Shown here: positions 897-62,849 of the stretch, one piece after another | Layout of the letters: every line of letters begins with the position of its first letter | How positions within the stretch are numbered: position 1 is the first letter of the stretch | NCBI GenBank assembly: GCA_008632985.1 | Contig: QPGO01000199.1 | Location: 1 to 64,000 of the forward strand | From: Psammoneis japonica | Taxonomy: Eukaryota | Direction: 5' to 3' | Length of the DNA: 64,000 nucleotides | Notes under the pieces: generated by a model | The model's input: only the letters and a program-made list of their open reading frames with translations | What the model was told of the DNA's origin: nothing | The model's database searches: none | Program-made: the position numbers and the translations under genes

Positions 897-2692
897 GTTT
901 GCAGAAAATGTTGATGTGCTCAACGTCTTCATGGTGGATCCAACAAACCTCAATGTCTTGTTTTGTGAGGCGGGTGTCAGAGATTTGATCGACACTTGTG
1001 CTGAGACGCAAAACAAGCCTGCAAGTTGGGGAGCAAGGTTCGTTGTCACAGACGTCATGAACGACTTCAAGACAACTCAAAACTCAATCAGCTCATCAAG
1101 AGCATGTTCCAGCATTTCAGAATTTTGGACAGTCCACTGATGCCACCAACCTTGCGGCGCGAGTGACAGCCAACAGCTGGCGGCTCGGTTTCCCACTGGA
1201 CTCAACTTGGGGTCGATTGAAGGGTTGCACAGGGCCTTTGGTTTCTTCAGATTGTCTCGAAAACAACAGCTCTGATTCTGAAGTGCAGCTTCTCGGGAGA
1301 CATGAGACAAAAGACTCTTGAGGCACTTTTCAATGCTTTCTTCTTGGTCCTCAGACTTGAGGCTCGTTGATTTGGTCTCCCAATTCTCTCCAATGGTCTC
1401 TCCTTGCACAGCAGATGCACTTCTTGGACCTGATCGACTTGTGACCTGAAATTCCATCCAGCCTTGACTTGGTGCAGACCTTTCAACAATGCTGTGCTCT
1501 TGCAAAGTTTTTGGTCCTGAGGCACTTGAAATGGATCGTGTTGGAACGAATCCCTTTGTCTTGAAGACAAAAAATGGGGTTCCATCTTGAGGCACTGCTC
1601 GGATTGAGCTGCTTCCGCTCGGAAATCGATTCCAGCAGAACCAGCGCATTTCACACCTGCTCATGGAAGCATTTGCAAAGGCACGCTGGCTAAAATTTTC
1701 ATTTTCCATGTTTTTGCCTTCTGTGGTGTGTGCACACAATGCACCATGCTCGAAGAACAAGCACAAACAAAAGCAGAATCAAGCATGAAAAGTGGAAATT
1801 ATGAGATTGAATTTTGCTCTGTGATTTTTGGTTTCTCCAAACGAGCTCTCAATGGCCTGAAGCTTCTGCACTGCTTCTGCAGACAAAAGGCCTTTCGGAG
1901 AACATGTTCGTGACAACAGATTGTCCAGATGCAATTGCCATTGACACACAAGATGTCAACATCATCAATCGATCGTGTTTGCAATTTTTGACATCCGATC
2001 AACTCTGTGTGGTCATTCTGTCCTTTGTGCACATTGTGCGATTGACGTGCAAACACAGCGCACAATTGTGAACATGCATGTGACAGTCACACACTGCACA
2101 TTGTCTGGCTGGATCACCAAAAAATGAGGAAAGTCATTGCACAAGAGAGAAGCTGAAGCCACTCAAAAAATTTCATTCTCTGCCTTGCATGAAGAAGCAA
2201 GCATTTGACATCATTGAATGAGGCCCCTGTCAGCAGCCAGTGGGTGCAAAGCACAAAGCTGCAGCTGTGCACACCAGCCCAAAAGAAAGGTCTGAGCAGC
2301 GCATCTGAGATTGAAAAGCTGCCAGAACAATGTGAAAAGAGTGGCACAAGACAGCATTGCTCATGCAGAAGCTCTTTGATCTCATGTTTCTTTGTTCATT
2401 TGGGCTTGGAATCAGCTCTCTGGAGATGAGCTCCTCCTTGGAGGCCTTTCCTGTTGCTTTGCAAAAAGCTGTTCAAACATTTCACGAGCTGCTTTGACAG
2501 CTCTGTTGTCAGCAGATCCACACTTCAAATGTGTCGCTGAGCTCTCTCCTTTGATTTTAGAAAGACCACTCTCTCCATGCAATGTCATCTTGATGAGTCT
2601 GGTCGACAAATGACAGGATGCCCAGACCCTTGCTGGGTGCATTTGTTGACACCCCATTTTGTGACATTGTCTGTGGCACTCGGTTCAAAAGA

Positions 2693-3089
2693 GACACGTT
2701 CCAGGTCTAGGTGGGACCTCGTAGGGCCCTACTGCTGAACTGTGACATCGACAGTTTTTTGAATCTCGTCGTATGTCGCGCACGTAGAATTCTACGTGAT
2801 TTTTTGATATTTTGTGTCATTTTACGGTACACTTATTGAGCGATGCGTCCAAAAACTTATGACATTTTTTGTTACAGCGCGATTCTATAATGTCTTAAGA
2901 ATCGCGTAGGGCAGGTGCATTTGCAAAAACGTCGAGTGGTAAGAGGCATAATTGCACCACAAACTTGGCCGTTTATTTGATGTTGAAGACAAACACATCC
3001 ATTAATTAAATTCTCGTACTACGGAGCTCGCACGTAGAATTCTACGGGCCCAATGTCACACGGAGTCCCACCTAGGGCTGGAACGCGTC
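2693..3089. mobile_element. MITE, GAC-terminus family, copy 2 (TpA-intact, inverted relative to copies 1 and 3)
   Basis: TIRs GACACGTTCCAGGTCTAGGTGGGAC / GTCCCACCTAGGGCTGGAACGCGTC; TSD AAGA; near-identical reverse complement of 4011-4401. Confidence 0.92.
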
Positions 3090-4010
3090 AAGAGTCAGAG
3101 TTGAACTCCTCAAATTGCCTGTCAGGCAGTCCCTTGATGAACCCTGGCAGCAACATCAGAACAACCACCACAGAGCAAAGGACAACCAGCTTCACCCCTG
3201 CCAGATGGAGGGGCCATGGGATGAACCCTGGCATCATTGCAGGCACGTGCTTTGCCAAACCAAAAAAAAGACAAAAAACAGGGCCAAGAATGAACACAAC
3301 AAAGACAGCTCTCGACACAGCAACTTTCCTTCCCTGGCAGTGACTGCATTCTGGGGCTGTTTGTTAGACAGACAACTGCAGCTGCTCCCCCTTTGTCCCT
3401 TGGAAGCACTGGAGGGAGACAAACGACCCATGGCAAAAACAGGAAACATGCAAAGAAGTGCCGAGTGAAATGCCAGCGATGCAAAAAACAAAAAATTGCA
3501 AATGAAATTTTGTGCGAAGTCAAACGGATCAAAATGAAAATTTCAGAATGCCCATGACTGCAAGTTCAGTGCACCTGCAACAACATTGGATGCAGAGATT
3601 GAAATTTTTGTCAACAGGGAGGGAAAAAATCCCTGTGGAGAAAAAGAGGTCTCGGGGCATTGCTGGGAAAAATGACAGCACCACCCAAAAAGAGCTGGAG
3701 ACTTGCACAAAGAGCAAGTGCAGGGGGGCATGCAGGGGGTGTGGCAACTTGAACAATTGGTGAGTTTGCGTCTGTTTCTGGAAGGTTGTGAGATCAAATT
3801 GAGCCAAGGGGACGTCAATTGAATGTTGTTTGGCATGCCTGCAGGGTTGATGCGGGTGCCACTCGATTCAGTCAGGGCCACAAGAAATTGATGCAGGTCA
3901 GCTGCATTGAATGAAGGCAAGGGCTCATTTGATGAATGGAAACCCAACGGATTCATGCAAGACATGCGTTGAGCCCGCCTCTGATGAAGTTCAGATGACG
4001 GTTGAAGGCA

Positions 4011-4401
4011 GACGCGTTCCAGCCCCAGGTGGGACTCCGTGTGACATTGGGCCCGTAGAATTCTACGTGCGAGCTCCGTAGTACGAGAATTTAATTAATG
4101 GACACATTTATCTTCAACATCAAATAAACGGCCAAGTTTGTGGCGCAATTATGCCTCTTACCACTCGACGTTTTTGCAAATGCACCTGCCCTACGCGATT
4201 CTTAAGACATTATAGAATCGCGCTGTAACAAAAAATGTCAAAAGTTGTTGGACGGATCGCTCAATAAGTGCACCGTAAAATGACACAAAATATCAAAAAA
4301 AATCACGTAGAAATCTACGTGCGCGACATACGACGTGATTCAAAAAACCATCGATGTCACAGTTCAGTGGCACGAGGTCCCACCTAGACCTGGAACGCGT
4401 C
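4011..4401. mobile_element. MITE, GAC-terminus family, copy 3 (TpA-intact)
   Basis: TIRs as above; TSD GGCA; the empty site is visible in a homologous sequence at about 25775-25810 (reverse strand). Confidence 0.92.
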
Positions 4402-4708
4402 GGCACACACCAAATGAAGATTCCTTGCTTTTTAAAAGACTCACACCTTGTGATCACCATGATGTTTGAACATGCTCTCCAGGTGTTTCTTCTTGCATTT
4501 GGTGTTGAACGTTGCCGCCACTGCAGCCGATCCCATGGTCGACTTGAGATGCGTGGCGTGTCTCTGCATTTCCGAGAGAAGAGATTGATTTTGTGGGTTG
4601 TGTGCTTTCGGTCGAAATTCGACAGCGCGATTGCCGCGTGGCGGACGTGGCCCAAAAGCGTCGTGAACCGAAGAGGGATCTCAGATCGAACAAACACAAC
4701 AGCAGAGG

Positions 4709-6321
4709 ATGAGCAACCACACCATCATGGCCACGGAAAATGGCGAGGACAGCGTTTCAAGCAATGATGCGGACAATGGCGATGACAGCGTCTCTGTTGA
4801 AGATGAGGGACCAATCATCAGCGACGAAGATTTTGCCAAAAATGAGCCAAGGGTTTTGGAAGCGTTGACCAGTGGAGATCCACGCAACTGCAGAAACCTG
4901 ATTTTGCCTTTTGGCGGGACATCCCCGAGGAGCTGCAGACCAACCCAGCGTTTCTAGCCAAGGCGGTTAGTGCGGGTGTGCAGAATGTTGCTTTCGATGC
5001 TGACAACAATTTGACAGCCCCAGAGTTCTTGGATGACCTGACAGCGGTTCCTGGTGCAGATGCCCTCGACAGCATGATGGAACAAAACCCCAATTTGGCA
5101 AACAAGAGGAAGTTCTGGTTGGCCGTCGCTTGCTCCTGTGACGCTGATTGTGTCAGAGGTGCTCCTCCTGGGATGTGCTCTGACAAGGAGATCCTGACAG
5201 CAGCGTGTGCAAGAGGGTGTTTGTGGGACCTTCTGGACGAGACTGCATTGAACGACAGGGTCTTTTGGTTGACCATTGCTCGCACTCTGGAAGAGGATGA
5301 GCATGACCAACACTTTGTTGAACACCATTTTGAGCAGCATGCTCCTCATGCTGTGCTCTGTGACAAGGAAATCATGGTGGAAGTGTGTTCAAGGGGATTC
5401 ATGTGGGAGCATGCTGATGAGGCTGTGCTGAACAATCCAGCCTTTCTGAAGGACATCCCACAACGGGACCCGAAATTTTTGAACCGTTTGGAGCCTGCAA
5501 CATTGTCTCGATTCCCCAACACTCTCATTGCGTTCTTGCCAATCGCCTTCCGCAGAGTGTGTGATGGCAATGATGCTGACTTCTTTGCATGGGAGAGGTC
5601 CATGGCAGATCAGATTCCTCAGGAAATGTGGAACAACAATCGCCATGTTGTCTGGGCTTGGTTCAAGGCAGGAGGCGCTTTCTTGCAAGGGAAGCATGGA
5701 GAACATCAAAACGATCCGCTTGTTGGTGGTTGGATTTGCCAACATTTTTTGCTTTCTGAGAAACTTTTGGAGCATTTCAGACTTGCGGCACCTGCATTGT
5801 TGAGCGAAAAAGATTTCATGATCAAAGCTGCTGCTCTCAACCTGAACATCTTTCATGTGGCAGCAGATGGTCTTCAGCTTGATTTCTCATTTCAGTTGGC
5901 TGCCTTTGGGGAGAGGCCTGATCATTGTCCACACACCAATGGTGAAACGTGGCCGAATCTGCGCCACTGCATGATGCAGTTTCGCGCAAAGGCCTCCGAG
6001 GAATTGCAGTCGCACCGCGATTTTGAGTTTTCAGCTCAGCGAATTCCTGACGTGTTGCCTTTTCATGTGACTGCAAACTCGAAAGTTCTTCCGGACGATG
6101 CCAGGGTCAAAAAGCTTGAGGTTGTCATGGAGAACATTGCCGCCGCCTCATTGGTGAAGAGTGGCACCATCTTCTGTGAGTGTCGGCAGCTGCCGATGGG
6201 ACAACCCACAACTCTTGTAGTGTGTTTTCCAACTGGCAGCCCTTCTGCATGTTTTTTTTTAAATGAGTGCATGGTAAAAAGGCCAAAAGGACGGACTTTC
6301 TGTTGTTTCTTAAATGAGTGA
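4709..6321 (+). pseudogene. DUF4116-like repeat protein, frameshifted and TpA-mutated
   Basis: Repeated DKEI(L/M)xxxCxxG / LLSEKDFMIKAA motifs resembling DUF4116 repeats; frameshift between ORFs 4709-4957 and 4978-6321; no Tyr in 447 aa. Confidence 0.55.
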
Positions 6322-6665
6322 CGGTGCCGTCTTGGAGCTGCAACAAGCGCGCCAAACCATGATTTCAGCATTTTAGCTCGCATCACTCCATTGTTTGTGC
6401 TCAACGTCTCGACGGCTCCACTTTTTGTTGTGACGGGCTGTCATCACAATGCACGGGGACATTGCCTTTCACAGAGATGCAACGAAGCAGTTGGTGCAAG
6501 ACACCTGTGCGAGCAAAGCAAAAACTGCTTGCGCCCCCCTTAAAAGAGTTAAGCTGTTCATTTCGTAATTCAACACAACTTCAACAAGTTTGCCAATCTC
6601 ACATTCCCCATCACAACACACAATCATCACATGACAGGCTCGTCATTTTCCCACATTCCATCGTG

Positions 6666-8490
6666 TCAAATCGATCCATCGGGGTGTGCTTTGACACACT
6701 TGCTGTGTGCGGCACCCGCTTTCCATTCTCCCTTGCAGCAACGTCCATTGCTCCAAAAGCATTCCCCGGACCCATCGTAAAAGCCATCTCTCCATCCTCC
6801 CTTGCAGCAACCACCATTGCTAAATCGATGCTCATCCTCCCCGTCTTGCTGTCCGTGTGCAAAGTCACCGGCACACTGACTCCCATCGGGCCACGCAAAT
6901 TGGCCCTTGCCATGTCGCTTGTTGAATGCAAGCTCCCCGTTGCAGGTGCATCCATCTTGCCATTGATGCAAGCCACCGCCGTGGCGTTGATCAAAGTGGC
7001 ACTTGCCTTCACAGGAATCGCCATTGCCAAAGATGGCCTTGCCAAAACCGCGCCACATGTCGTGATGCCAATCGCCCTCACAGGTGTGCTCGTCGACCTG
7101 ATGGACCATTTTCCCCAAACCGTGGGGCATGCCAAAATTTGTGAATTGACCAATTGCTGTCGTTCCTCGTGATGGGTGGAGGAGGCCGCGGCAATGCTGG
7201 TCATGGTGGCATCGTCGCCGTCATTGTGGTTGCTGTTGTTTGGAATGTACAAGCGCTCCATGTTGTTGTTGTTCAGTGGCTTGCCATCCACCATGCTGGT
7301 TGGAACTTGTGGTTCATCCAGAGAATGACCCTTGGGAAGCAAGGCATCATCATTGGAGGGTGCAATCAAGCTCATTGGTGACAACGCGTCTTCCTCTTGT
7401 TGTTGCACTGCCGCCGGTTTTCGATCATCATCTTGAACTGTTTCGAGTGCTGCCGGTTTATGCTCGTCATCTTCTTCCTCTTCTGGTTCCTCCTCCATTC
7501 ATTCAAAGCTGGAAGATGTGCCGTGGTTGGGCTTTCAGTGGCAGCCGCTGCAGCAGCGGTTGGGTGTGGTGTTTGTTTGCGGCGCGCTGGCGCCATTTCC
7601 GGAGCAGCCGCCATTGGACCACTGCTCGACAGTGCCGCCGCTGCACCCACCGCTGCAGCCGTGCCAACTGCAGCCACGGCCGTGGCCGGAGCAGTGTCCA
7701 TCTTGTTGGAAGTGACGGGTGTTTCCACTCGACTGCTGTTGCTGCTGCTCATGGAGGAAGAATCATTTGGAAGCCTTGGCCGTCTTTTTCGATGCCGCAG
7801 CGACAGAACATTCTTCATCATCATCTTGTTCCTCATCATCGTCGTCTTGAGCCGTGACCATGACGTGATGCTTGCGGGGAGCAGTGGCAGGAGCGTCTTT
7901 GACAGACGCTGCTGCAGTCGTGATGGTGCTCTCCTCGGTGAGTGGAGACTTTTTCGCATCGGGAACGGGGCTCACATGCGTTGGTTTCACAATTTGAATC
8001 AAGCCTTGGATCTCTTGTTTGGCAACATGCTGCTTTTGCTTTTCCTCCTCCTCCTTGTCATCATCTTTACGACTGCTCTTGCTTTGATTCTCAATCGATT
8101 TCTCCACGTCTTTTACTTGCTTTTCGACATTTTCCGAGGGCACTCGCTGCATTGTGGCATTGTCATTGTTGCTGCTGTCACTGCCTGCTTCCATGGAGGC
8201 TTGCAGCTTGTGCCACATCGGATGCCGGTTCCAGGTCATGCTTGATTTGTTCTCATTGTTGCAACCAATGTGTTTGTTGCTGTTGCATCTTTTCCATTTG
8301 TTGCGCCAGCGTGGCAACCACGATGTTGTTGCTTTGTGGTGATTGCACCCAACCGTTGTCATCGTCGGCGTCCATGATTTTCATGTCCACACTGCCAGGA
8401 GCACCAGTGCTGATTGTGTTTGCATTCATCATGTCTGTGTGCGTGAGTGTGTGTGACTGACATGTGTTGCATTGTTGCAGCTGTTGTGGT
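6666..8490 (-). pseudogene. MORN-repeat protein with low-complexity N-terminus, frameshifted
   Basis: ORF 6666-7130 has about 6 MORN repeats (xEGxWxxxxxHGxG) with the consensus Tyr replaced by Cys; upstream acidic/Gln-rich segments in shifting frames; 5' limit approximate. Confidence 0.75.
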
Positions 8491-11988: not shown

Positions 11989-13604
11989 AGACTCGATTTA
12001 CAATTCATCATTGAGCTCTTTTGTCTGTGAGCAGAGTCGTCGCTGCATGTCTTCTGACGTCTGCTTTCGCAGTTCCACTCTCGTGCAGCTACAGTGTTGC
12101 ACACCTGCCTCCTGCGGCTGCTTCTGTGAAGTCACTCATGTGCAACAGCTGCCAGGCCCTGAGTCTAAATGTCCAAGCGACAGACAGCACTGAGCAGGGA
12201 TGTCGGCATGGAAGAAGATCACACTTGCGGCATGTTTCGACTGATTCCTTTGCTCGGTGGCGTCTCATGCTTGGCGTCAATTCGCATGCCCATTTCACCT
12301 TGTCCCCAGCGTCTCTGCTGGCAAAGACTGGTCTGTGGCACCTCAACACCGCTCCCCTCTCATTCAAGTCTACTCCATGTCATTGTTGCCATCACTGTCT
12401 TGAGTCAACGCCCGAAAGAGTCCCTTGGTGTCATTTGCACCATGACAGCCACGGAATTGAAAGTCTTGCGACGACGTGGCAATGTTTTGAATTCTTGTGC
12501 TTGCGGGAGAATGCTCCAGTTGCAGCAGCAGTGGCAATGCCGTCAGTCTCACGCTCCACTTGTTTTTCTGCTTTCTTCCTTTCTAATTCTTGCTTGCACA
12601 CTTGCAATTGCTTCTGCGCCTCCTTCCACAGACTCTCCTCCTTTTCCAATGCCGCAAATTCCACCATGAGATTCAATCCCTCCTGCTTGGTGGCATGATT
12701 CAGCTCACACAGCTGCTTGGCTTTGAGCAGAGGCTGTTGCTTTTGCATCTCCTTTTTTCGAAACGACGCTTGGCTGCTTCTTGTTTTTCCAATTGCTTTT
12801 GTTCTTCAAGTGGAACACACACGACAGTCTCACGCTCGACACGCGTCTCTTGCGCTCCGCGCTGAACACCTGCCGCCACGGCTTGACAAATGGAAACCTG
12901 ACATTCCAAAAGCACTGTTCCAATCATCTGATTGATTTTGGTGCTTGTCAACATCATCTTGAAAAACATCCTCGTACAACACTTGGACCAGAGCCTTGGA
13001 CGGAACCTCGGTTTCGACGGGGCATTCTACGAGCGGTCGCACTGCAGAAGCAGCAGCGAGCAGCGGGTGGTGTGGATGTTTTGGGACGCTTCATGAGAAT
13101 CGACGTGGGCGATTGAAACCACAGTGACATCAAGGAACTTGGATGCTTCCTCGAAAGTGTGCAAATGACGAAAAAAGACATTGCAAGGTCATCGGCGTGA
13201 GCCGGGGCATCATCGTCGCAGTCACGACTCAACGTCATTCTGGTCGCATCTCACGACTGCAACCCAGACTCAGATTTTCTCTTCGAAATAAATGGCTCAT
13301 CACAAAATCGATTCAAACAGAAGCAATGACATTCGTCATAATTTTTAGACAACGACCGTCTGTTTGCCTCTGTCGCTGTTCACATTGCTGCCAACCTCTG
13401 AGGTCTTGTCCATCCTGCCCGCTGCAGGACTGCATCTCGACTGGTCACAGAGCCCAATTTGCGTGTTGACGAGAGCTCCTGACCGAGTCATTGTCACGGA
13501 CACTTTTGGTTTTTGATTTTGAAGCAAACCCAGGAAATGGCTGAGTCTCTCTCGCTTCTCTTGTCTTCATTCTAACAAGAACCTCCCACACTGCACTCTC
13601 TGTC

Positions 13605-16600
13605 ATGGCTGCCATCGATCCGGATGTTCTGGCGAAGGCGTTTGCCGATGCAATGGCTGCTGACACAGCAGCGAACGCTCCTCCGCCTCCAACCAAGCCG
13701 TTGCATGGTGGAGTTCACCCAACCCACGGGGTTTGCATTGGTGGCTCCAAACTCGACGACAACTGTGAACAATCCAACGACAGAACCTGCCGACTCGCCT
13801 CTCAGCGCCGTCATCCCAAGGCTCTTGACTCGATGGAACGATCTCTCCGCGATCAACAAGCTTCCGCAATGACTTCCAAGTTCAACGGTCGACTTGAGAT
13901 TTCGGACGGTCCCATCAACGAGCTTGACAAGGACCATTTTGTCAAGACCATTCGAGATCTAGCAGAAGCCCATGGTCAGCAGACGTTCTGCCATGTCAAG
14001 AACAGCGACGACAAGGTTCAATGTGTCTTCGAACATCTCCACGAGTTTGCTGTGACCGATCTCGTGAACGAATGCAAAGTTGGGAAAGCAGCTGCCGATG
14101 ACACCAAGTGCGACGAGATCGAGCTCGACGACATCGGGCTCTCTCAGCTGCTCGTTCACTCAAGAATCACCAATGCCTTTTGCGAGAAAATCGAGACCAA
14201 GTTCAACCATCTCAAGGACTGCCAAGACTGCCCTGGATCTGTTCCATTCATGATGGCTCTCGACACTTGCAATGCCAGCGCTCCAACGGATGTTGAGATG
14301 GCCAAGAAGCAGCCAGAAGACCTCAGTTTGGTCAACTGTCCTGGCAAGGATTGCACGGACTTTGCTGCCGAAGCTCTTCGCATCGTGAAAATCATGCAGA
14401 CCGACTGCACACTTCCGGCGAACACAAGCTCCAAGCTGCTCCAAAAGATCTCCTCTGCGTCCTCTGAACACTTCAATTGGAGAGTCCACAACAAGCTTGA
14501 CGACGTCAAGGCTGTGGAACGCAAGTGCCACCTCAAGAATCCTGCTGACATCACGTCCGACAGCAATTGCAACACGCTCGGACCGGTCGGCATCATTGCG
14601 TGGATTCAGGAGCAACACAATGAACTCGTGAAGGACGGGGAGTGGCCTGCTTTGGTTGCCAAGCCACCCAAGAGCAATCTTTTGACTGCGGATGACCCTG
14701 GGAAGACAAAGCACTGTCATGGTTGCGGTCTCGAGGGGTGCACCAAGAAGACGTGCCCGAAGTGCAATGCCAAACGGCCGCGCGACGATCCTCCTACGAA
14801 TCCGCCACCTGCAGACAACCCTTCCAAGAAGAAGCAGAGACCCATCACTGCCTGGCGCATTGAATTTGACGGAGAAACAAAGAAGGATAAGAATGGCAAA
14901 GAATGGAAGTGGTGTGCCACGTGCACGGCGAAGGGTGCCGACAAACCTGGAATCTGCCAGAAGCACTCTGCCGCGGAACATGCCGCAGACCACAAACGTC
15001 CTCCCAAGGAAACCCCAGCCGGGAATCTGTCTTCCGTTGCTGATCCAGACAGTGGCATGCCCATGGGTCTGCCAGCTCAGACTGCCAAGGAACCAGAGGG
15101 AGACGAATCCGACCCCAACGAGTTGGTTTTCACGGGAATGTGGTGCGCGGCTGCGGATGCCGTTGCCAACCCGGATTTCTTTTCCGACCCTGTCACTGCT
15201 GCAATTGTTGTCACTCCGGCTTCTTCGGCCGAGAGGGAGAGCGACACAGTTGTCAGCACTGAGGTGCTTTGCAACGAAACGAGCCCACCTGTGCTCACCT
15301 CAGTCGTGGATCCAGTCATGTCTCCCATTGTGGTTGAGACTGTCACTCCCGAAGACGCCGATGACTTCTGCGAATGCTCCAACGCTTTCTCTGCATTTGA
15401 AAACGAACCACCGGCTGTTGAGTTGTTTCTGGCCTCAAAGCTGTGCTCTGTCAAGCATCCAGATGAGTTCTTTGACGCTCCCGCAAATTTGACGGACATG
15501 CTGTCAGATGACACAAAGTCAGATCTCATCCTTGAACATGACGTGCACTTTGAAGACGCACACGACGACTTGCCTCCGTGTGTTGCATGTCGTGGCTTTG
15601 ATTTCTATGATCCAGAGATCCTGGACATGGATGATTGTCACGAGGATGTTGAAGACGAGCCCACTTCATGTCGATCAATCTTGGGACGGGTCAAGCTGTT
15701 CATGTTCTGGCTCACCGCCATGTTTTGGGAAATGGTGCTGCACTTTTGCTTTGCTCCGATCCCAAGTGTCCCTCGAGCTCCATGCCACCAGGGCAAACTC
15801 CCAACCTTGCACGGGTTTCCAGCCTCTTGGATGGTCCCATCCGTTGCAGTTGCGGCATGGTCAGCAGTTTGCGCCGGTCGACAGCCCGAGTGTCCATTCT
15901 CAAATGCACCAAGCCGTTTTTCGACCGCTGGCTCTCATGTCTGCCACACTGTGGAAGAGCTGGATGACCGGACAGTGTTGGATGCGGGGTCACTGTTCGA
16001 ATGTCACAGGATCAAAGGCACACAAGCACTCACCAAGTTTGTCGCACACCATCCGTCACACGCACTGAGCACTCGTCTCAAGGCCTGCTGGGAGAGCCTG
16101 GAAGCAGCTGAAAGGTCTGACGCGACAGACGAATCAGCCTTCTTTGAAACCTGTGAGGAACTGGAACCTCTCGACGACCAGAAGCATTTCTTCGACGCTC
16201 TTGAGGACTTCAGCCCAGATTTCTTCCAGTTTGACGAGCTCTGTCTGCCCAATCACATCGTGGACACTGCTCATTTTCAAGATCCTGTGGAGCCATTGGA
16301 GGACGCACGTGTTGGGCCAGTCGTCTGCAACACCTCCACCATCCAACTGCTCACCGGACAATCTCAAGCCGACCTTCTTGCACCCGATCCGCAGGCACTC
16401 ATCAGTCTGTCGGACGAAGCTCTCACGGTCGTCATGGATGCTGGTGCCATGCCAGCTGTCACCCCCGACAAAGATGATTTTGCGGGGCCCATGACTGTTC
16501 CCAAGACACCCTTGCAGATCAATGGGATTGCCAACGGTCTTGCCATCCAGGGTGCTGGCCCGGTTGCGTGGGTGTTCACCATGCTGAGTGGCGCCACCAC

Positions 16601-16769
16601 CCAACTGAACACCATGGCGTGCCACATCCCTGGAGCCCGTCAGTGCCCACTGTCGCCTCAACGCCTCTTCAATGAAGAGAAGGGGGTGCGTGGGAAGCAT
16701 GAGGGCAATGAAACCACTTTCCGCTTGCATTTGCCAGATGCATCACCCTGTCACATTGCGACAGTTTGA
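13605..16769 (+). mobile_element. Truncated Ty1/Copia (CoDi-like) retrotransposon gag + aspartic protease ORF
   Basis: Gag zinc-knuckle-like CxxCxxxxCxxxxC and WKWCATC...H motifs; protease-like VMDAGA...TP.K.DF.GP...I.GIA.GL.I.G.G.V.W.F; ends before integrase; only one Tyr seen in 1054 aa; LTRs not verifiable. Confidence 0.8.
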
Positions 16770-18629
16770 TTGAATTGCCACATGAAATTGGCGTGTTGAC
16801 TCGGCTCGTTTGTTTGCAAGTGAACTGTGACAATCTTGCTCCTTTGCCTCCAGAAATTGGTCAATTGCAGCGACTTTGTGAGCTGGATCTTTGTGGTTGC
16901 ACGAGTCTTGAGCAACTGCCTGCGGAGATTGGACAATTGCAAGAGCCAGAACACTTGGATTTGTCTCTTTGTTTTGGTCTTGAGCAACTGCCTGTGGAGA
17001 TTGGACAATTGCAAGAACTGGAAAACACTTGAACTTGAATGGTTGTCACAATCTTGAGAAACTGCCTGTGGAGATTGGACAACTGCAAGAACTGGAACAC
17101 TTGAACTTGTGCGCTTGCAAGTCCCTTGCACAGCTGCCGAGAGAAATTGGAAATCTCCGTGGGCTGCTTTCCCTTGATCTGTTTTGTTGCTCCGGATTGA
17201 CTTTTCTTCTGAGTGAAATGTTTCAGTTGACCAATTTGATGCGGTTGAATGTGTCTTGCTGCAAGCATCCTGAAGAATTGCCAGGAGCCATTGGGAATCT
17301 GGTGAATCTTAAAGAGTTGTCTCTGAGCGGCTGCTCTGGCATTGCACAGAGCTGTCAAGGGAGCTTGAGTCACTTGCGAGCTTGGAATGGCTGTGTCTTG
17401 ATGAATGCAAGCATGTTGAAGAATTGCCAGGAGCCATTTGGAATCTGGTGAATCTCAAAGCGTTGTGTCCATGCCGCTGCTCTAGCATTGCAGAACTGCC
17501 AAGGGAGCTTGAGTCACTTGCGAGCTTGGAAAGGCCACATCTTGATGAATGCAAGCATCTTGAAGAATTGCCAGGAGCCATTGGGAATCTTGCACATCTT
17601 GAAGAGTTGTCTCTAAGCGGCTGCTCTAGCATTGCAGAACTGCCAAGGGAGCTTGAGTCACTTGCGAGCTTGGAAAGGCTGTGTCTTGATGAATGCAAGC
17701 ATCTTGAAGAATTGCCAGGAGCTGTTGGGAATCTGGTGAATCTCAAAGCGTTGTCTCTAAGCAGCTGCTCTAGCATTGCAGAACTGCCAAGGGAGCTTGA
17801 GTCACTTGCGAGCTTGGAAAGGCTGTGTCTTGATGAATGCAAGCATCTTGAAGAATTGCCAGGAGCTGTTGGGAATCTGGTGAATCTTAAAGAGTTGTCT
17901 CCAAGCGGCTGCTCTGGCGTTGCAGAACTGCCAAGGGAGCTTGAGTCACTTGCGAGCTTGGAAAGTCTGATTCTTGATGGATGCACCCAACTAACGGAGA
18001 TCCCAGCTATTGGGAATCTTGTGCATCTTGAAGAGTTGTTTCTGCGCGGCTGCTCTAGCATTGCAGAGCTGCCAAGGGAGCTTGAGTCACTTGCGAGCTT
18101 GGAAAGGCTACATCTTGATGAATGCAAGCATCTTGAAGAATTGCCAGGAGCCATTGGGAATCTGGTGAATCTTAAAGCGTTGTATCTACGCCGCTGCTCT
18201 AGCATTACAGAACTGCCAAGGGAGCTTGAGTCACTTGCGAGCTTGGAAAGTCTGATTCTTGACGGATGCACCCAACTAACGGAGATCCCAACAGTCGTGC
18301 TACAGGCACTGACAAACTTGAGAATTCTCTCTTTGGAGGGTTGCTTGAGCCTAACGACAACACCGCAGGAAATTCGAGAGGCTTCGTATTCGCTCACGAG
18401 CGTGACTACTCCATTCAATGCCATGCAACCTGAAATGAATTGCCACACAGCTTGGAATAGGGCCGGACGCTATCTGCTCCGCCAGGACGACACGCCGTTG
18501 GCGTTGTGGCCCAATGTTTTGGAAAACTCGAGCGACAATCCAAATGCGTTGTTCTTGTTCTTGACAAACAAACCAGACATGTGTAAGTTTGGTACTACCG
18601 AGGAAACGCGCAAGAACAGAGATGAGTGA
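16750..18629 (+). pseudogene. Leucine-rich-repeat protein (LxxLxxLxLxxCxxLxxLP type), 5' part frameshifted, 3' ORF 17382-18629 open
   Basis: 24-aa LRRs in 144-bp (48-aa) tandem units; C-terminal N..GRYLL....P.ALWP.VL...LF.FL..KP motif of the kind seen in diatom LRR proteins; frameshifts near 17030 and 17350. Confidence 0.85.
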
Positions 18630-19356
18630 TCTTACACATTAGAAGTACATACGTGTGAACAATGCCACCGCCCACTACTGGAGAGTTTGGGCAGATACCA
18701 TAAGACGAGGACGAAGAAATTCCCCTCTCTATTATAGAGCACACTCTCTAGAGAGTATTGTAGTAGTTTTGCTGCTTTCCGGTTTTTGGGTTGTGCTGCT
18801 ATATGTTGTTGTCACAGGTTTCTCCATGAGTCGGGGAGCCTTCTCTCTCTCTCTTCATAGTCGAAGAGAAATAGTCTAAGAATATTATAGACTCCACACA
18901 AAGATATTGTATGCAAGGCAGTGGAAGTAGAGGTAGTTTCCGTTACCTGAGGCAATTTACTCTTTAGAGAGAGTATTGTACAAGTAGTGTGTTGCCTTAA
19001 GCTGCTTTCCGGCCGTTGGGTCGGTGCTGCTGCCTTGTCACTTGTCTCTCTTCATCGTCGAAGAGCAAACGTTGTTGAAAGTGCTTGCACGTCGCTTCAC
19101 TTTCTCTTACGTCCTTATTATCTGTCGCTTCAATCTATAGAACCGGAGGAAAAGGGAGCTAAGCCTGCCAAGCCCACAAAACAAAACAGAAGCAGAAGAA
19201 GTCGAAATCGGCAAAGACAAACAAGAACAGCATCGTTAGTATCGAGAGGGAATATCATGCCTTGCCTAAATCTGTATACTTTGGTTGTACTGATGCTGCA
19301 TCTCCTCTCTACACCTGGTATCGGTATTCAGCTAGGCAAAAACCGAAGGGCAAGCA

Positions 19357-20130
19357 ATGGCTCAAGTGCTGAGTACGTTCAATCGCATGGAACGGGTTCG
19401 TTTTGAAGCTTTCAAACGGTACACCTTTCGCGGCGATGCTGTGTCATCTTGTGTTGTGCACTGCATTGCTGCATCACATGAAAGAGCTTGTGCTGGTGGA
19501 GAAAAGATTCGACAGAGTTCCTGGGCTCCTCTACCTGGGAATTGGAGGTGAAGCCCAGAATTCCAACAACGCTTTGCCACGGCGATGTCCGTACATCCGC
19601 GATGGGACTGGCAGTAGTCTAATGGTCACAACAGCAGCGACACTAGTTCAGTGTCTGATGGTGAGAATGGACGACGAAACGGTGGTCGACCAAAGCGCTC
19701 CCTTGAAGATATGGTTACGCCTGCAGAATCTGAAGAGATTACTGTTGTTGTGTATCCACACTCTGGCGAAAGCATGTGCACAGCGACTGGGACGGCGGCG
19801 CGTCGAGTTGCATCTTCCAATGGGCGAGAAAATGGAGCACTATCTTTAAACGATTGTTTGATTATATTGCACACCAAGCTTGTGCCCGCGGCTGGTTTGG
19901 ATCCAGGGTTATTCTTGCAATCGAGCATGCATCGACTACTAACGTTGTGGCTGGTAATTCTCAAGCCTCGGCAACGGGCGGCTCTGGGTGTAGTCAACCG
20001 TTACGAACTGGTGAGAAATGCCGCCCTTGCAGCGCAAGAGGAGTATGACCAACAGCTAGAACAAAAAGGGGTCAAAGAATCTGAGAAACGCGTTGGCGAA
20101 GATACTGATGCGGCGGATGAGGAACCGAAA
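19357..20130 (+). pseudogene. TAF11: TAF11 (TAFII28)-like histone-fold protein, disrupted
   Basis: AQVLSTFNRMERVRFEAFKRYTF and EEITVVV/TLAKACAQRL segments match the TAFII28 histone-fold pattern across frameshifts. Confidence 0.55.
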
Positions 20131-31111: not shown

Positions 31112-31518
31112 GACGTGCTCCAGCTCCAGGTGGGACCTCGTGCTGCTGAGCTGCGACACACTTGTTTTTCATCATCCGTCGCATGTTTCGCGTGCACATT
31201 TCTGCGTGTTCCATCATAAAAAATTGTTCCACACTGCCTGTTTTGCGAAGCCAAAGGCTTTCTGTTGTCTGCACTTGTGTCAACAAAAATGCGCTGGGTG
31301 TGCTCTTCAATGTCTGAAGAATGTGCCCGGGCATGCTGCAGAGAATGTGCTTCAAGTGTGGAGGAGGAGATGCGTTCGCAAAATTGCCTCAAAATTGCCT
31401 CTTTTTCTGTTGGCGATCATTCATACATTCGCTGCTCAACAATTTTGCTGCGGAGCTCGCACGCAGAATTCCACGGGCCCAATGTCACAAAAAGTCCCAC
31501 CTGGGGCTGGAACCCGTC
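31112..31518. mobile_element. MITE, GAC-terminus family, divergent copy 4 (TpA-depleted)
   Basis: TIRs GACGTGCTCCAGCTCCAGGTGGGAC / GTCCCACCTGGGGCTGGAACCCGTC; TSD GAAT; right end matches copy 2. Confidence 0.85.
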
Positions 31519-33451
31519 GAATGGACATCAGAGGTGTTGATGGGGCAAGGTGTTGAGTTGGGGATGTTGCAAAAACAGCAGAACAAAATGCTGCACTCAA
31601 AAGTGTCAACATGTGACATTGTGCTCTGTCTGTGGGGACAAGCGAATCCATCACTTTGCAAATGAGCTGCATCATTTGCAGCTGCTTTCAGTGCTGCCTG
31701 AGTCAAGGTTTCTGGCTGGCGGCTGAAAGTGGTCCTGGGCAACGGATGGTTTTTTCTTGGCCCTGCTCTGCCTGCTGCACATTTGGGGTGAGCAAGATGC
31801 TGGCGATCCCAGGACAGCAAAAACCCAGGAAGACGATGCAAGAAGGGCTTGCCGCTTGAGCATCTTTGGCGGCCGTTGCACCATTCAACGTGCCCTCCCA
31901 CCAGCAAGGGTGACTTTGACTTGATCTTGCACATGTGCTGACTCACTTGCTTGACTCAGGCATGGACACCAGCCAAACCCTTCTCAGCTGCACATCACAT
32001 GTGTCGCTTTGCCTGGCCCTCCACACTTGTTTCAGTTTTCTTGTCATGCTCCACATGATGTTTCTTGACAGCCTCAGGCAACTTGGAGACACACTCATCA
32101 TCCGCAGGGAGCCTCACTTTGCCATCCCAGGATTTTGTGACAATTGGGTCTGCTGCAGAATGCCTGCATCACATCCAGCACCAGTGTGATGTGTGAGCCT
32201 TGGATTTCTTTTTCAATTTCCCCACTCACAAAAGCACCTTTCCAGTGGGCATGCCAGCAGGTGCACTTTCCAACCCCCGGCAATTCGTCCCAGGCAGCAT
32301 CTGCACCAAATGTTCCAACAGCATGTCCGAGTGAAAAGTCCACATTTGCTCCTCATGCACAACCTTCAAAGTGACAACCCATGTGCTTGCTTCCAAGCAA
32401 AACCAAAGCAAAAGTCAAAGAACTGCTGGAACTTCTGACGACACCTTCAGAATGTTGTCGTCAACAACAAGCCCACGGGTGGTCTTTTTAAACTTCTTCC
32501 TCAAAATCTGGAGACTGTCCTCTTCACCTCCATTGATTGACAACGACAACGAGCTCATTGAGCGAGCCTTTTTCTTTTCCTCTCAAGTTCCCCCACTCAT
32601 GGCTCAGATTTGGCAATGAACTGACAATGCCGTGCTCTGGTTTTTCTGAGCTGGTGGTGCCTGGCAGCAGCAGATTGTGTGCTGGGTGTCATTTGTGGCC
32701 AACTGTTTTCAACAGTGCCATGTGCATGGTGGCACTTGAGATGCAAACAACCTTTCTTGATTTCACATGGACAAAACAATGACTTGCGAGTCAATTTTTG
32801 CCAATTGCCATTCTTGGTGGTGCGCGTTGCTCGCTCTTTTGCTTTGCAGCCTTGTGAAGCTGTGCCGCCGAAAGAAGAAGGTGATGCATTGCACATCAAT
32901 CAACCACACAATCAGCCAGCAGCAGAAAGTGACAAAGACTCAAATGCATCATGGCAGGCCTGGGTCATTTTGAAGCACCCAAATCAGCAGTGTGTGGGCG
33001 AGCGGTGGGTTGGCGGGGATCTTGTTGTTGGCGCTGGCCCGCATGTTCAGCGCAGCAGCACTGCCAAAGAAACATGAATCAAATCATTCTCGTTGGGAGT
33101 CAACTTGGATCCAAGGACTCATGGTTCATTTCCTGGGCACTGCAAGAGGATCAAGCCATTCCCTGAGCTGGGGAAATCTTGAGAGTGGAGCCGCCCGTCA
33201 CAACAAGCGCTTGCTCCTGCCATTGTGGTGGTGTGGCATGACTCCTCAAGAAAAAAAAGGCAGTGTGTCCTTGACAGACCCATTTGGAGGGTTCGCTCGT
33301 GAGATGAGTGAAACAATGGCAATTTGGTCTGACCAAAATGCACATTCTCAGGAAACACTGCTGTTCATCAGCCTTGTCACTGTGTTGTTCATGCGCTTTT
33401 GATTTCGCGCGAAGTGTTGGAGTCCCTAGGTACCGGCATCGTACCGGTAAC

Positions 33452-34117: not shown

Positions 34118-34621
34118 TTTCTCCAGTCCGTAACAGCGTCATACATTGAAGGCTTTTGGCGGTACTTTAATCACATTCCCCGACCCTCTGAGGTTTTCTT
34201 TGACGGTGACAGTCGCAAGCGCATCGGACCCGAGGGAAAGACCGTGGAGGAGTACAGCCTTTTCAAACGGGGTATTGAGCCCGAATGGGGTGATCCCAAG
34301 AACGTGACGGGGGGAGAGTGGTTTTGTCGACAGTACTTTGAGGGGGACGTCCTGGATTTGTACTGGCAGAATCTCGTCCTGGCGGTGGTGGGCGAAGTCA
34401 TTGAAGACGGGCACGGGGAAGTGGAGAGTCATGTCAATGGAGCCAGAGTCGTTGATAAGGGCAGGGGGTATCCCATGTTTCGCCTAGAACTGTGGATCAA
34501 CACGAGAAACCCAGATTTTAAGGAACGGATTCGCCAGAAAATGGTGGATGTCATGACGGATGGACAGCCACCCTCGAGAAAGGCTCACCCAAAGTTTGAT
34601 TGGAAAGACCACAGCAGTTAA
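34118..34621 (+). CDS. eIF4E: Eukaryotic translation initiation factor 4E family; C-terminal part open, 5' exon region appears disrupted
   Basis: IEGFWRYFNHIPRPS, YSLFKRGIEPEWGDPKN..GGEW, WQNLVLAVVGE, RLELW motifs; probable upstream intron about 33979-34042; in-frame TAA at 34115. Confidence 0.85.
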   Translation, partial: FLQSVTASYIEGFWRYFNHIPRPSEVFFDGDSRKRIGPEGKTVEEYSLFKRGIEPEWGDPKNVTGGEWFCRQYFEGDVLDLYWQNLVLAVVGEVIEDGHGEVESHVNGARVVDKGRGYPMFRLELWINTRNPDFKERIRQKMVDVMTDGQPPSRKAHPKFDWKDHSS

Positions 34622-37912: not shown

Positions 37913-39740
37913 TATGTGTAAGCGTAAGAATGTTTCGGATTATAGAGCGGCAAGGTGCGGAGAAGGGGATTTCTACAACCGTACCTGTCGCATCATTGTC
38001 ACCGAGTGAAACTGTGATGCGTGATGCGAATGGGCACAGAAAGAAAGCAAGGAGCGGATGGACGGACAGCCTCTCACGTCTGAAAAGCGCGGGAAACCGT
38101 ACAACGTACAGACCCCAAAATTTGACGCACGTTGTCTTCGCTCTTCCATGAACATGAGGATGATGAGACATGGTCCATTGGAGCAAAGCGAGGACAGGAA
38201 GTGGAAGTTTATCCTGGAGTTGTTGTCAGTCAAAAATCAAGCAGAGAAAAGTGGCCTCAGATTCTGGAAAATGTTTGTCATTTGAAAAACCAAAAACAGG
38301 CAAAACGGCGAAAACGGATCAGCGCGAAAGGCGCGCGACATAGTCATCCCTGTACCGTAACGCGCGACCAAGACGGATGACCGGACCCAAGGATTTATAA
38401 GTCTGTCAGGATGTACAAGCTACGTAGAACGCGTGTTGCCATGCGTGGTCAACAGCCTCTAAGTAATCTTGACGGTGCGAACTCCGCCGTTAAAGTATAT
38501 AAATTTATGTATTTTGTATATGTATTTGTAAAGCAAGAGACCGGACACGAGACTTCCAGTCTCCTCATTTTTTCAAGGGTTCGCGCATCATTCAAAAAGG
38601 CACCACACACCATGATAATCGGAGCGGCTTATTAGACTATTGACGATCCTTTCAACAATACCAACGCTATCTACTAGTCTTTACCTTCATATATAAACAG
38701 CTTATGTTGCTTTTTCGAAGGTAAGCAGCCAATAGTAAGGTGAAAAAAGGATTTTGTATTGACACCACGGTTCGAGACTCATTATCGCTCTCTGTCGCAA
38801 TCGAATTATATTGCGCTTTTGTTTCGGCATCTCACTCATTTTCTTTGACATGTTCGTCTTTATAACTCATATAGAGAAGATCTTGAGCAATGTATCACCC
38901 CTACGGACGAACAATGGCTCATAGTTTCGTGTCGGTGTCGACACCATTTTTTCTTTTCAACTCATGTTCTTCCTTATATCGGAATGGGGCTGTGGTGTGT
39001 CCTACGCTCTCTTTTGGCCTGAGCCAAGAAACATACAGTTGATACTATCACGAATAATGACAATTATAATGTGCAATGGGTTGGATATTGACGTCCATGA
39101 CCTTGCCGAGTGCCGGTTAGTAGTACTCCCTCGTTCAGGGACCGAAAACTGGGGTAAATCTTGGTGGCGTGGAGACTCTGCTATTGGAATGCGAGCGAGC
39201 GGGCTGGAATCTCGTGCAGTTTACTTCTGAAGGATGTGTACAATAAGGTATGTTTACATTTAAAGCAGTATTGATGCATCATGCATACAGTACTGGTATG
39301 AGGATTTACAAACTGACAATTTCATTCTCCGTCTCCATTTTTCCCATGTAGGCGGTGTCTTAATTTTGTTTCTTGCGGCCTTTCGGATCTACAAAGGAGG
39401 ACGGGAACGACTTGTACCTTATCAATCTAGGGTTGTCGTCATTAGGTCCATAATTTGTGGTGACGAGGTGTCTGTTAGTTGCAGGAACTAAGACGCACCT
39501 CACGGAGTGCCGGTACCCCAAGACGCACCTCAAGACGACGCACCACCATGTGTGCATTATTTTATGTTTCTTGTTGCCTTTCAATCTGCAAAGGAGGTCT
39601 GAGACACGACCTGAATAATTTTGGATCGTTGTTGGGAACGACTTGTACCTTACAATTCTAGGGTTGTCGTCAGAAGACCGTGTGCTTTGTGGTGACGAGG
39701 TGTCAACGAGTTTTGCAAACTTAAGACATACAGTACAGTG

Positions 39741-40085
39741 CCTCAAGAAATACAGCACCTCAAGACACCATCACGGAACACGGTACATTATACCTCAAGT
39801 TCGTCTCATTTCTTGTCAAGTGGTGCATGACTGTCCTCTCTGTACTGCAGTAAGGTTGCGGTGTGCGCTGGATGAGTTGAGACAGCGCCTCAAGAAATAC
39901 AGCACCTCAAGACACCATCACGGAACACGGTACATTATACCTCAAGTTCGTCTCATTTCTTGTCAAGTGGTGCATGACTGTCCTCTCTTTACTGCAGTAA
40001 GGTTGCGGTGTGCGCTGGATGAGTTGAGACAGCGCCTCAAGAAATACAGCACCTCAAGACACCATCACGGAACATAGTACATTAT
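39741..40085. repeat. 147-bp tandem repeat, about 2.3 near-identical copies, inside the P element
   Basis: Unit starts CCTCAAGAAATACAGCACC at 39741, 39888 and 40035. Confidence 0.92.
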
Positions 40086-45281: not shown

Positions 45282-45365
45282 CCACCATCACATTTCGTGC
45301 CGTCTGTTATCCCCCCTCCATCACGTTTCGTGCCGTCTGTTTTCCCCCCTCCATCACGTTTCGTC
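45282..45365. repeat. ~33-bp tandem repeat just upstream of the transposase ATG
   Basis: CCATCACGTTTCGTGCCGTCTGTT(A/T)TCCCCCT-like unit, about 2.5 copies. Confidence 0.8.
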
Positions 45366-49056: not shown

Positions 49057-49332
49057 TGACAGAAATTGAAGGCAAATGGCAAGAATTCAAACAACAACTC
49101 CTTGCTGCTGTCTAAACAGCAGATGAGTCTCCGCTCAGAGACCGTCACAGGAGCCAAAAGACGTGCAAGTCGGTGTGATCGGGCTGCTGTTGTCATTCTT
49201 GTGAGCCTTGTGGCTCAAAAGCAAAGTGCATCGCGCGTGAACGCGCGGAGCTGAAGCACACAAAACTGTGCGCGGCAAACTAAACAGCACGCGACACTTC
49301 GCGCGCACCCAAATCCTGTTCAAATCCTGTCA
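49057..49332 (-). repeat. 3' LTR of the Copia element
   Basis: Direct repeat of 55793-56068. Confidence 0.95.
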
Positions 49333-54951: not shown

Positions 54952-55792
54952 TGCTGGTTGGGAAGCGAAGGCAGACTCGAAACTTGGGTGAGAATGGACT
55001 TGACTTGAAGTGGACTTGACTTGAAATCTTGAGCTGTCTTAAAATCAGAAGTCGCCGGGCTTTGCTGTCCCGTTCGTTGTTGGGTGCTAAACTTCCCATC
55101 CGGTCCGCAGAGTTGTGCCGGCACGTCCGAACCCGCAGCTGGCGGCGCTTTGGGTTGCTTGCGAGCGGAGCAGCGGTTGGATTTCCCGATCAGGCTGGCC
55201 AGTTGACGCAGGCGTCAGGCACTGTGGACGAACGAACAAATGCGGGAAAGCACCCTCGCCCCAACGCAGGCTGCAATCACGGCTGCTTGCTCTCACAGTC
55301 GTCCTCGTGGACCTAGCAGAACTGCAGAGCACCAGCAGTCCGGGGTGGATCAGGTGCAATGGACTCGGTGTGCTTGCAGAGTGGTGGCAAAACCGCAGTC
55401 CGAAGAGTGGGTAAAGGTTCTTGGCCGTGAAGACATGCATGTGCACACACATGTCTTCAGCGACTAAGATCCTTGAACATGTGGGGTTCTTGACCGTTAA
55501 CCGAGGAACAGGTGTGTCAAGGGATGTTGATCAAGGACAGACTTGGATGTGACCGTTGAACACATGTCTTCAGCGATCAAAGGCAGCATGATCAATCCAG
55601 ACATCCAGCGGCAAGGAGACTTGACGGTGACGTTAACTTCCTGCCGATGCCCTGGTGTTGAATGCGCGTAGACTTGCCGATGTATGTAGAACATGTGCGG
55701 AGGTCCACGCAGGATTGAAGTGGCGTCGTTGGTAAATCAACGACGACGATGGCGGTTGCTCAATGGGTTGACAATGACCAAGACTGTTGGTC

Positions 55793-56068
55793 TGACAGAA
55801 ATTGAAGGCAAATGGCAAGAATTCAAACAATGACTCCTTGCTGCTGTCTAAACAGCAGATGAGTCTCCGCTCAGAGACCGTCACAGGAGCCGAAAGACGT
55901 GCAAGTCGGTACAATCGGGCTACTGCCATTATTCTTGTGAGCCTTGTGGCTCGAAAGCAAACTACATCGCGCGTGAACGCGCGGAACTAAAGCACACAAA
56001 ACTGTGCGCGGTAAACTAAACAGCGCGCGATGCTTCGCGCGCACCCAAATCCTGTTCAAATCCTGTCA
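55793..56068 (-). repeat. 5' LTR of the Copia element
   Basis: Direct repeat of 49057-49332. Confidence 0.95.
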
Positions 56069-60700: not shown

Positions 60701-60739
60701 CAAACTGACAGAAAGATGTTCACTGCAATTTCCCATGAT

Positions 60740-62830: not shown

Positions 62831-62849
62831 TCTGAGAGAGCAATGATGA

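Follow-up and report, generated by a model that had tools for sequence, protein, structure and literature searches.

A TpA-directed mutation signature extends from a transposon-like element into an apparent leucine-rich repeat gene remnant of the diatom Psammoneis japonica

Repeat-induced point mutation (RIP) of ascomycetes is a premeiotic process, associated with the enzymes RID and DIM-2, that changes CpA to TpA, so that the affected DNA turns AT-rich. The leakage of RIP into genes located within repeats may diversify or extinguish these genes, as discussed for fungi by Rouxel et al. 2011 (PMC3105345). In the chlorarachniophyte Bigelowiella natans, a TpA-only A:T to G:C hypermutation was measured in mutation-accumulation lines, according to the preprint of Mettrop et al. 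(bioRxiv 10.64898/2026.01.13.699255), in which the targets are integrated giant-virus and virophage DNA, an adenine deaminase of the ADAT2/TadA type is proposed, and the genes with low TpA are reported to be enriched for reverse-transcriptase and DDE Pfam families. The substrate motif of TadA is given as U-A-C-G in the tRNA anticodon loop, and fungal ADAT-type mRNA editing is described as favouring a purine at +1 (PMC10027721). Here we describe a signature of this kind in 64,000 nucleotides of P. japonica (assembly GCA_008632985.1, contig QPGO01000199.1, positions 1 to 64,000 of the forward strand; this whole stretch is referred to as the window), in which TpA gave way to TpG or CpA on either strand, on the chromosome itself and according to a hierarchy of sequence contexts, and in which the loss of TpA extends from a transposon-like element past its junction into an array of leucine-rich repeats (LRR). 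The explanation that we favour, and to which we give slightly better than an even chance, is that a mutator aimed at the element continued in cis into what would be a dead LRR remnant, with its dose falling on the way.

Over the whole window, the observed/expected ratio (o/e) of TpA was 0.33, and the composition was two-state: TpA o/e was 0.0-0.1 at about 0.6-2.6, 3.1-4.1, 4.4-17.3, 30.9-33.4, 46.1-55 and 56-64 kb, and 0.4-1.0 outside these blocks. In the depleted blocks, CA and TG were in excess ((CA+TG)/(AC+GT) = 1.4-2.8), TpA/ApT was 0-0.1, and GC was the same or higher. The TG/CA ratio of the erased blocks was 0.93-1.25, indicating that both strands were mutated. The direction of the change was read from three copy pairs inside the window, each formed by a copy with normal TA and a depleted copy, which belong to the following elements:

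2735-3091 (minus strand) and 4011-4367 (plus strand): element of about 290-360 nt, present as an inverted pair, 96% complementary, 0.9 kb apart, TA normal
49057-56068 (minus strand): Copia element, with long terminal repeats (LTRs) at 49057-49332 and 55793-56068
49283-52558 (minus strand): Copia-type reverse transcriptase (RVT_2), inside a depleted block

For the 290-nt element, the depleted copy at 504-794 was compared with the normal copies at 2800-3091 and 4011-4301, and TA had become TG or CA at 18 of the 62 and at 19 of the 56 differences, respectively; the same change was found at 6 of the 34 differences between the Copia LTRs (55793-56068 versus 49057-49332). TA-type differences in the reverse direction were zero in all three pairs. 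The other differences of the old copy pairs were of the CpG type, other transitions and transversions, a spectrum blurred by the long divergence times. As LTRs are identical at insertion, their TA-type differences place the mutation after integration and on the chromosome; thus, the locus shows a process acting on chromosomal DNA in place, and not on RNA or cDNA before integration.

Every TA offers one adenine per strand, and the neighbours of these adenines were scored in the pairs of known direction. Of the 28 adenines with a 3' pyrimidine, 18 were mutated, compared with 7 of the 32 that had a 3' purine (p = 0.0015); by 3' neighbour, the mutated share was 13/19 for C, 5/9 for T, 4/18 for A and 3/14 for G. 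The preferred target is T-A-C/T, C being the best neighbour. Three context classes of TA sites (Y, pyrimidine; R, purine) were distinguished: Y-TA-R (CTAA/TTAG, TTAA and CTAG), R-TA-Y (GTAC, ATAC/GTAT and ATAT) and mixed. Their survival per bp in erased relative to normal DNA was 0.13-0.25 for Y-TA-R, 0.035-0.08 for mixed and 0-0.035 for R-TA-Y sites. The dose received by a sequence is legible from these classes, with T-A-pyrimidine lost first and Y-TA-R last.

The locus under study lies at the downstream end of the 4.4-17.3 kb block, where the element adjoins the LRR array. The array was divided into four zones, and the TA share of TA+TG+CA sites was scored in each by context class, with normal open reading frames (ORFs) as reference:

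13545-16766 (plus strand): TA-erased 1074-codon ORF of a high-copy transposon-like element; the fragment up to the LRR start is 13545-16739
16724-16754 (plus strand): junction at which the transposon-like ORF meets the first LRR unit, located by the tblastn start, the overlapping ORF frames and the drop in depth
16740-17259 (plus strand): zone 0; 0/107 TA, all classes, versus 228/1323 in normal ORFs (Fisher p = 7.8e-9)
17260-17978 (plus strand): zone 1, five near-identical 144-bp superunits; Y-TA-R 7/54, mixed and R-TA-Y 0/89
17979-18269 (plus strand): zone 2, the last two superunits; Y-TA-R 4/21, mixed and R-TA-Y 5/35
18270-18629 (plus strand): zone 3, the last LRR unit, a non-repeat C-terminal tail and the TGA stop; 10/66 TA
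Normal ORFs (reference): Y-TA-R 23/328, mixed and R-TA-Y 205/995

In a tblastn comparison of the LRR protein with the window, similarity started at 16724-16754 and was found nowhere else in the window. The array is made up of divergent 72-bp units (16740-17259), which are its least self-similar part (74-82% identity), followed by seven 144-bp superunits (17260-18266). The transposon-like fragment 13545-16739 retained 5 TA (o/e 0.03), and none was present between 15606 and 17310; within the array, 7 TA were counted in 17260-17978, 9 in 17979-18269 and 10 in 18270-18629. The corresponding TA o/e for zones 0, 1, 2 and 3 was 0.00, 0.15, 0.49 and 0.45, compared with 0.43-0.48 in three untouched ORFs.

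The context classes resolved this loss further. Zones 0 and 1 differed in the resistant Y-TA-R class (0/31 versus 7/54, p = 0.044), and the mixed and R-TA-Y sites, absent from zone 1 (0/89), set this zone apart both from zone 2 (5/35, p = 0.0014) and from the normal ORFs (205/995, p = 6e-9). The mixed and R-TA-Y sites of zone 2, as well as zone 3, were indistinguishable from normal ORFs (p = 0.52 and 0.74, respectively). Erasure was total for about 0.5 kb past the junction, partial over the next 0.7 kb, and compositionally undetectable beyond about 1.24 kb. An earlier note on this DNA, made from the sequence alone, had described a hypermutation that fades along the LRR gene, with normal TA returning by about 18300; the loss is indeed densest by the transposon-like fragment and gone over about 1.2 kb, but a plain test of a ramp against a step is not significant, and normal TA is back by about 17980 instead.

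Since the units are copies of one another, the aligned columns with an ancestral TA were scored as a repeat test. The alignment of the seven superunits comprised 149 columns, 40 of them variable, including 12 in a divergent segment of unit 17979. Ten of the 28 remaining variable columns fell in six dinucleotide columns limited to TA, TG and CA (binomial p = 1.1e-5 against the 7% expected). All three states were found in four of the six, which makes TA the parsimonious ancestor and indicates that the units were mutated independently after the array was formed. Two more columns seem compatible with an ancestral TAT, in which case the Leu-Cys, Leu-His and Pro-His variants of one position would each be one TA step away from Leu-Tyr. 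In the zone 1 columns, TA was kept at 7 of 14 Y-TA-R positions and at 0 of 11 others (0/15 with the inferred column; p = 0.008, or 0.002 with it), and the columns outside the Y-TA-R class kept 0/11 in zone 1 versus 5/8 in zone 2 (p = 0.005). The number of TA kept per unit at the six columns, from 5' to 3', was 1, 1, 2, 2, 1, 3 and 4 (within-column permutation p = 0.025; Spearman 0.77, p = 0.044).

The strings that the earlier note had compared among units are where it placed them (TTGTATCTACGC at 18180, TTGTGTCCATGC at 17463, AGGCTACATCTT at 18105, AGGCCACATCTT at 17532, AGGCTGTGTCTT at 17676 and ATTACAG at 18204), and its proposal that the units differ by TA-derived changes is largely borne out by the six columns limited to TA, TG and CA. 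Its contrast of ATTACAG with ATTGCAG is less telling, as the string is present but TA occurs in one unit and TG in six, so that the direction is ambiguous. The strand bias of the products was uninformative in the LRR, where TG/CA was 1.8-2.3 even in the unmutated zone 2, owing to TG-rich LRR codons.

The LRR sequence was read in three frames (16712-17032, 16984-17451 and 17313-18629), all of which matched LRR profiles. Pfam matches to 17313-18629 included LRR_14 (4.7e-38), LRR_4 and LRR_8, among others; LRR_14 also matched both upstream frames, and no domain other than LRR was found by Pfam in any of the three. The main LRR ORF had no ATG upstream of its last 50 codons, and the frames are separated by two shifts:

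17024-17032 (plus strand): first +2 frameshift, two extra A in the unit followed by an in-frame TGA, with the repeat spacing changing from 72 to 74
17344-17346 (plus strand): second +2 frameshift, uncertain, two extra bases in unit 17260 by alignment

The first was confirmed by a 386-nt read contig identical to 16915-17300, and the extra bases of the second were absent from the sole X1/X2 read contigs there, whose placement within the repeat is ambiguous. With no start codon, two +2 frameshifts, one of them confirmed, and a start at the junction, the array does not encode a working receptor as assembled; in this form, it is the 3' remnant of an LRR gene joined to a truncated element. The coding effects comprised Tyr to Cys or His, Lys to Glu, Ile to Val and Ser to Gly, together with Leu to Pro, which affected core leucines at three places of zone 1. 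In a remnant, such changes amount to decay and not to adaptive diversification; of the two outcomes foreseen in the earlier note, faster receptor variation or decay, it is decay that agrees with the missing start codon, the two frameshifts and the Leu to Pro changes at core positions.

A homologue search with the 438-residue LRR ORF returned generic LRR relatives only (25-51% identity, at most 78% of the query), so that no orthologue was available to polarise the changes. The last LRR unit plus the tail (139 residues), compared with 1.84 billion representatives, gave 2426 matches; those listed cover the LRR part only, and among them none of the best matched stretches goes past residue 107 of 139, most of them stopping at about 50-60. 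Read contigs about 90% similar to 16843-17239 were also observed, which skip 152-155 nt (from 16959/16962 to 17115) and represent LRR paralogues with a different unit number elsewhere in the organism.

Word depth was summed over read contigs from a public DNA run made on this organism, as a crude guide and not a copy number. It was 2166-8188 over the element, which marks it as high-copy, versus 89-593 over the LRR and the downstream flank, and the fall was located at the 16737/16738 bin limit. The 1074-codon ORF had neither a Pfam match at any E up to 10 nor a relative in the homologue search, and showed no similarity by BLASTP to the gag region of the Copia (RVT_2-bearing) element of the window, whereas a protein atlas gave zf-CCHC, Pol_BBD and copia gag clusters as leads (scores 0.78-0.86). 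This ORF is probably the gag-protease part of an LTR retrotransposon; the name Copia, which the earlier note had given to the fragment, is plausible as a weak lead from the atlas and finds no match in Pfam or among homologues.

Read contigs were also compared with the window at the level of single differences. The public sequencing data listed comprised three DNA entries from one sample. Run X1 has 0.68 of the words sampled from 16600-19400 in common with the window, indicating that it represents another haplotype or strain. In the part of the difference list that was covered (40 of 173 rows and 16 of 1338 contig pieces), the following sites were found:

17902, 18444, 18740, 18742, 19635 and 19657: CA or TG in the window, TA in the contigs of the public DNA run

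Among the listed rows at or after 17902, 6 of 19 were of this type and none of the reverse (sign test p = 0.03). The difference at 17902 (C>T) lies in a repeat unit, where contig placement is ambiguous, and the six sites extend about 1 kb beyond the LRR stop. The comparison of alleles that had been proposed as a check thus gave the one-way pattern, although without an outgroup and with one of its sites in the repeat; it hints that a low-level spill-over is recent and reaches further than the composition shows.

The shape of the edges was evaluated by fitting a logistic ramp to TA versus TG+CA sites and by the profile likelihoods of its scale. At the LRR edge, the 10-90% width of the ramp was about 840-880 bp, with a best logistic scale of 200 bp. 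At seven other edges the ramp width was zero and the profile likelihoods placed the scale under about 20-110 bp; three of these (30.7, 33.4 and 46.0 kb) lie where an erased block meets an unmutated flank, and four are the ends of young TA-normal insertions within the erased block. Leakage is therefore not a rule in this window, as the edges at 30.7, 33.4 and 46.0 kb show none. Given that the usual edges are sharp within tens of bases, the exception at the LRR points at whatever sets the boundary, be it chromatin, guide RNA or read-through transcription.

In the favoured explanation, a diatom mutator would turn TpA into TpG or CpA (A:T to G:C) in transposon-derived DNA, on either strand and in situ on the chromosome, and its target at this locus would be the high-copy transposon-like fragment 13545-16739. 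Erasure would have crossed into the adjoining, promoterless LRR remnant, its dose dropping with distance from the junction, such that at the lower dose of zone 1 only the poorly attacked Y-TA-R sites would persist; the LRR units would have been struck separately, leaving equivalent positions now as TA, TG or CA. The dose may be set by distance from the transposon, for instance through a spreading domain of silent chromatin or one marked by guide RNA, or through read-through of the truncated element, which would have lost its 3' end, an option suggested by an LRR that lies downstream of the element ORF on the same strand. The enzyme may be an adenine deaminase of the TadA/ADAT2 type that acts on DNA, as would agree with the preference for T-A-pyrimidine and especially TAC; the preference for T-A-C narrows the search for the enzyme.

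Several points weigh against this explanation. The sharpness of the seven other edges makes a spill-over exceptional, so that a special reason is needed here, and at the LRR edge the ramp beats a single step by a log-likelihood of only 1.6 (coding part) to 1.8, which is not significant; the gradient therefore rests on the context-resolved and aligned-column evidence. Zone 2 is like unmutated DNA, so that the gradient may consist of two steps. There are only seven superunits, which are mutual copies of a genealogy that is not known, and their columns are not fully independent. If the hazards are scaled as in the old blocks, keeping half of the resistant sites predicts that about a quarter of the mixed sites are kept, and none was observed. 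The transposon family of the neighbour is unverified; the LRR paralogues represented by the contigs about 90% similar to the array raise the possibility that part of the array was a target itself; and the read comparison covers 40 of 173 listed rows, without an outgroup and from a run whose library type is not on record.

In the alternative with the best chance, which we nevertheless regard as unlikely, the LRR array would itself be the target of a mutator that senses repeats, as RIP does (here the 72/144-bp units or the dispersed paralogues), and the transposon would be incidental. The erasure does stop inside the tandem array, leaving a unique tail that is compositionally normal, the contigs similar to 16843-17239 are paralogue-like, and other internally repetitive gene remnants (MORN and DUF4116) are also found in the erased block. 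However, the most erased units, those of zone 0, are the least self-similar, and the B-A-B stretch of zone 2, which is equally repeated and as similar to the zone 1 units as these are among themselves, still retains sensitive TAs, so that position outweighs similarity. Moreover, the contig depth over the LRR equals that of the single-copy flanks, which means that the array itself is not high-copy, and the 290-nt pair, 96% complementary and 0.9 kb apart in the erased block, is unmutated, which argues that short nearby repeats as such are spared.

A sharp mutator edge that later became a mosaic, by gene conversion or unequal crossing-over among units or between an erased and an untouched haplotype, appears improbable. 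Such exchange is common in tandem LRR arrays, units that lie side by side have some derived states in common (units 17694 and 17838, for instance, both read TG at column 32), and the plain test cannot reject a single step. A mosaic, however, predicts a joint fate of the context classes, whereas zone 1 kept 0/11 mixed and sensitive versus 7/14 resistant sites, interleaved within units, and this class-specific loss is as a lower dose predicts.

Editing before integration, in which A-to-I changes in the RNA or cDNA of a retroelement that included the LRR would be fixed by reverse transcription, could draw on a U-A preference like that of ADAR/ADAT editing, as discussed in the Bigelowiella preprint (bioRxiv 10.64898/2026.01.13.699255), and on the position of the LRR downstream of the element ORF on the same strand, but it is hardly credible in view of the LTRs of one element that differ by six one-way TA-type changes, the differing products across tandem LRR units, the single-copy depth of the LRR versus the high-copy element, and the about equally affected strands (TG/CA 0.93-1.25 in erased blocks). 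Ordinary LRR divergence with codon bias, or a systematic base-calling artefact, is very improbable as well: LRR coding sequence is naturally TG-rich (TG/CA 1.8-2.3 even in zone 2) and no library type is recorded for the confirming run, but TA-type changes make up 10 of the 28 variable columns, where about 7% would be expected (p = 1.1e-5), TA is scarcer in zones 0 and 1 than in zones 2 and 3 of this one array, the 386-nt contig of the public run matches exactly the TA-free 16915-17300, and the blocks have sharp edges that coincide with elements.

Beyond the favoured explanation of this locus, a wider proposal can be made, which is possible although on the doubtful side: diatoms would possess a DNA adenine deaminase of the TadA/ADAT2 type that is directed at transposons, prefers T-A-C/T and is still active; it would mark domains instead of sequences and so spill 1-3 kb into the host DNA beside truncated or read-through elements, the six polymorphic sites being its leading edge. 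If this were true, the genes located by transposons, those of LRR receptors among them, would be permanent hot spots of mutation, and RIP leakage, regarded as a driver of effector evolution in fungi, would have a counterpart of reverse chemistry. At this locus, the process was able to cross from its target into neighbouring host sequence and to damage it. The context-resolved TA index provides a practical means to date and map such events in any genome.

The remaining contents of the window include the following features:

6669-7220 (minus strand) and 4846-6318 (plus strand): ORFs in a TA-erased block, matching MORN repeats (E = 1.9e-15) and, weakly, DUF4116
34118-34618: eIF4E ORF, best matches of 76-77% in the homologue search

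The depleted blocks contain, besides the elements described above, additional repeats as well as repeat-protein remnants of the MORN and DUF4116 kinds; from these ORFs, further host-type repeat-protein genes besides the LRR may have been mutated. The named relatives of the eIF4E ORF were only diatoms: Ditylum brightwellii (69%), Pseudo-nitzschia multiseries (65%), Nitzschia inconspicua (62%) and two Bacillariaceae bins. An open ORF of 1678 codons at 40254-45287 (minus strand), with a TNP-like RNase H N-terminal domain (E = 1.6e-7) and a TA o/e of 0.45, is transposase-like and apparently unmutated, and lies 1 kb away from an erased block. At 39735-40028, a tandem pair of 147-nt copies, 99% identical, was found within TA-normal DNA.

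For the inverted pair of the 290-360-nt element, the 921 nt between its arms are erased, and the same holds for the third copy, at 502-794, and for a partial one at 31446-31521; similarity to the element was also noted at 502-873; the two arms are either young insertions later than the mutation episode, or short repeats that escape mutation. In the Copia element (49057-56068), the TA survivors cluster at 55.0-56.0 kb (16 of 189 TA/TG/CA sites, versus 0-4 per 500 bp further in), a second dose difference within one feature, and the older adjoining block begins sharply at about 56020. CpG o/e was 0.14 in the 56020-64000 block versus 0.77 in the equally TA-free fragment 13545-16739, indicating that the loss of CpG and the loss of TpA are separable.

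In full-text literature searches, no description of a TpA-specific A:T to G:C mutator was found for diatoms, and the sole published counterpart found was the 2026 preprint on viral insertions in an unrelated alga (bioRxiv 10.64898/2026.01.13.699255). [quoted passage not shown] They are unlike in the host and in the target, a chlorarachniophyte with viral insertions versus a diatom with transposon blocks, and here the blocks are stripped almost to zero. Edges, spill-over and the wider sequence context, which are not treated in the main text of that preprint, are addressed here.

Compared with RIP, the process described here is likewise a defence-like mutator aimed at repeats, acting in place and overrunning into adjacent single-copy sequence, where it fades with distance (with the reservation that the plain ramp-versus-step test is not significant). 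Unlike in RIP, TpA is destroyed and GC is the same or higher, so that the direction is the opposite; of the RIP-like leakage suggested in the earlier note, the spill past the junction and the independent mutation of units in place are retained, and the chemistry is reversed. A further difference from RIP leakage is that most edges are sharp and that the 96%-matching 290-nt pair nearby is untouched. As to a trigger by duplication, a trait of RIP, within the window the high-copy elements were mutated and the 96% complementary 290-nt inverted pair was not.

The target also resembles that of TadA/ADAT2, in the motif reported for these enzymes (PMC10027721), as the adenine follows T and a pyrimidine is preferred next, C above all (13/19). 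Those enzymes act on hairpin loops of tRNA and mRNA, as described there, whereas here the affected substrates are kb-long DNA domains. With respect to the systems described so far, what is new at this locus is the graded spill-over, together with a T-A-pyrimidine preference that can be used as a dose meter.

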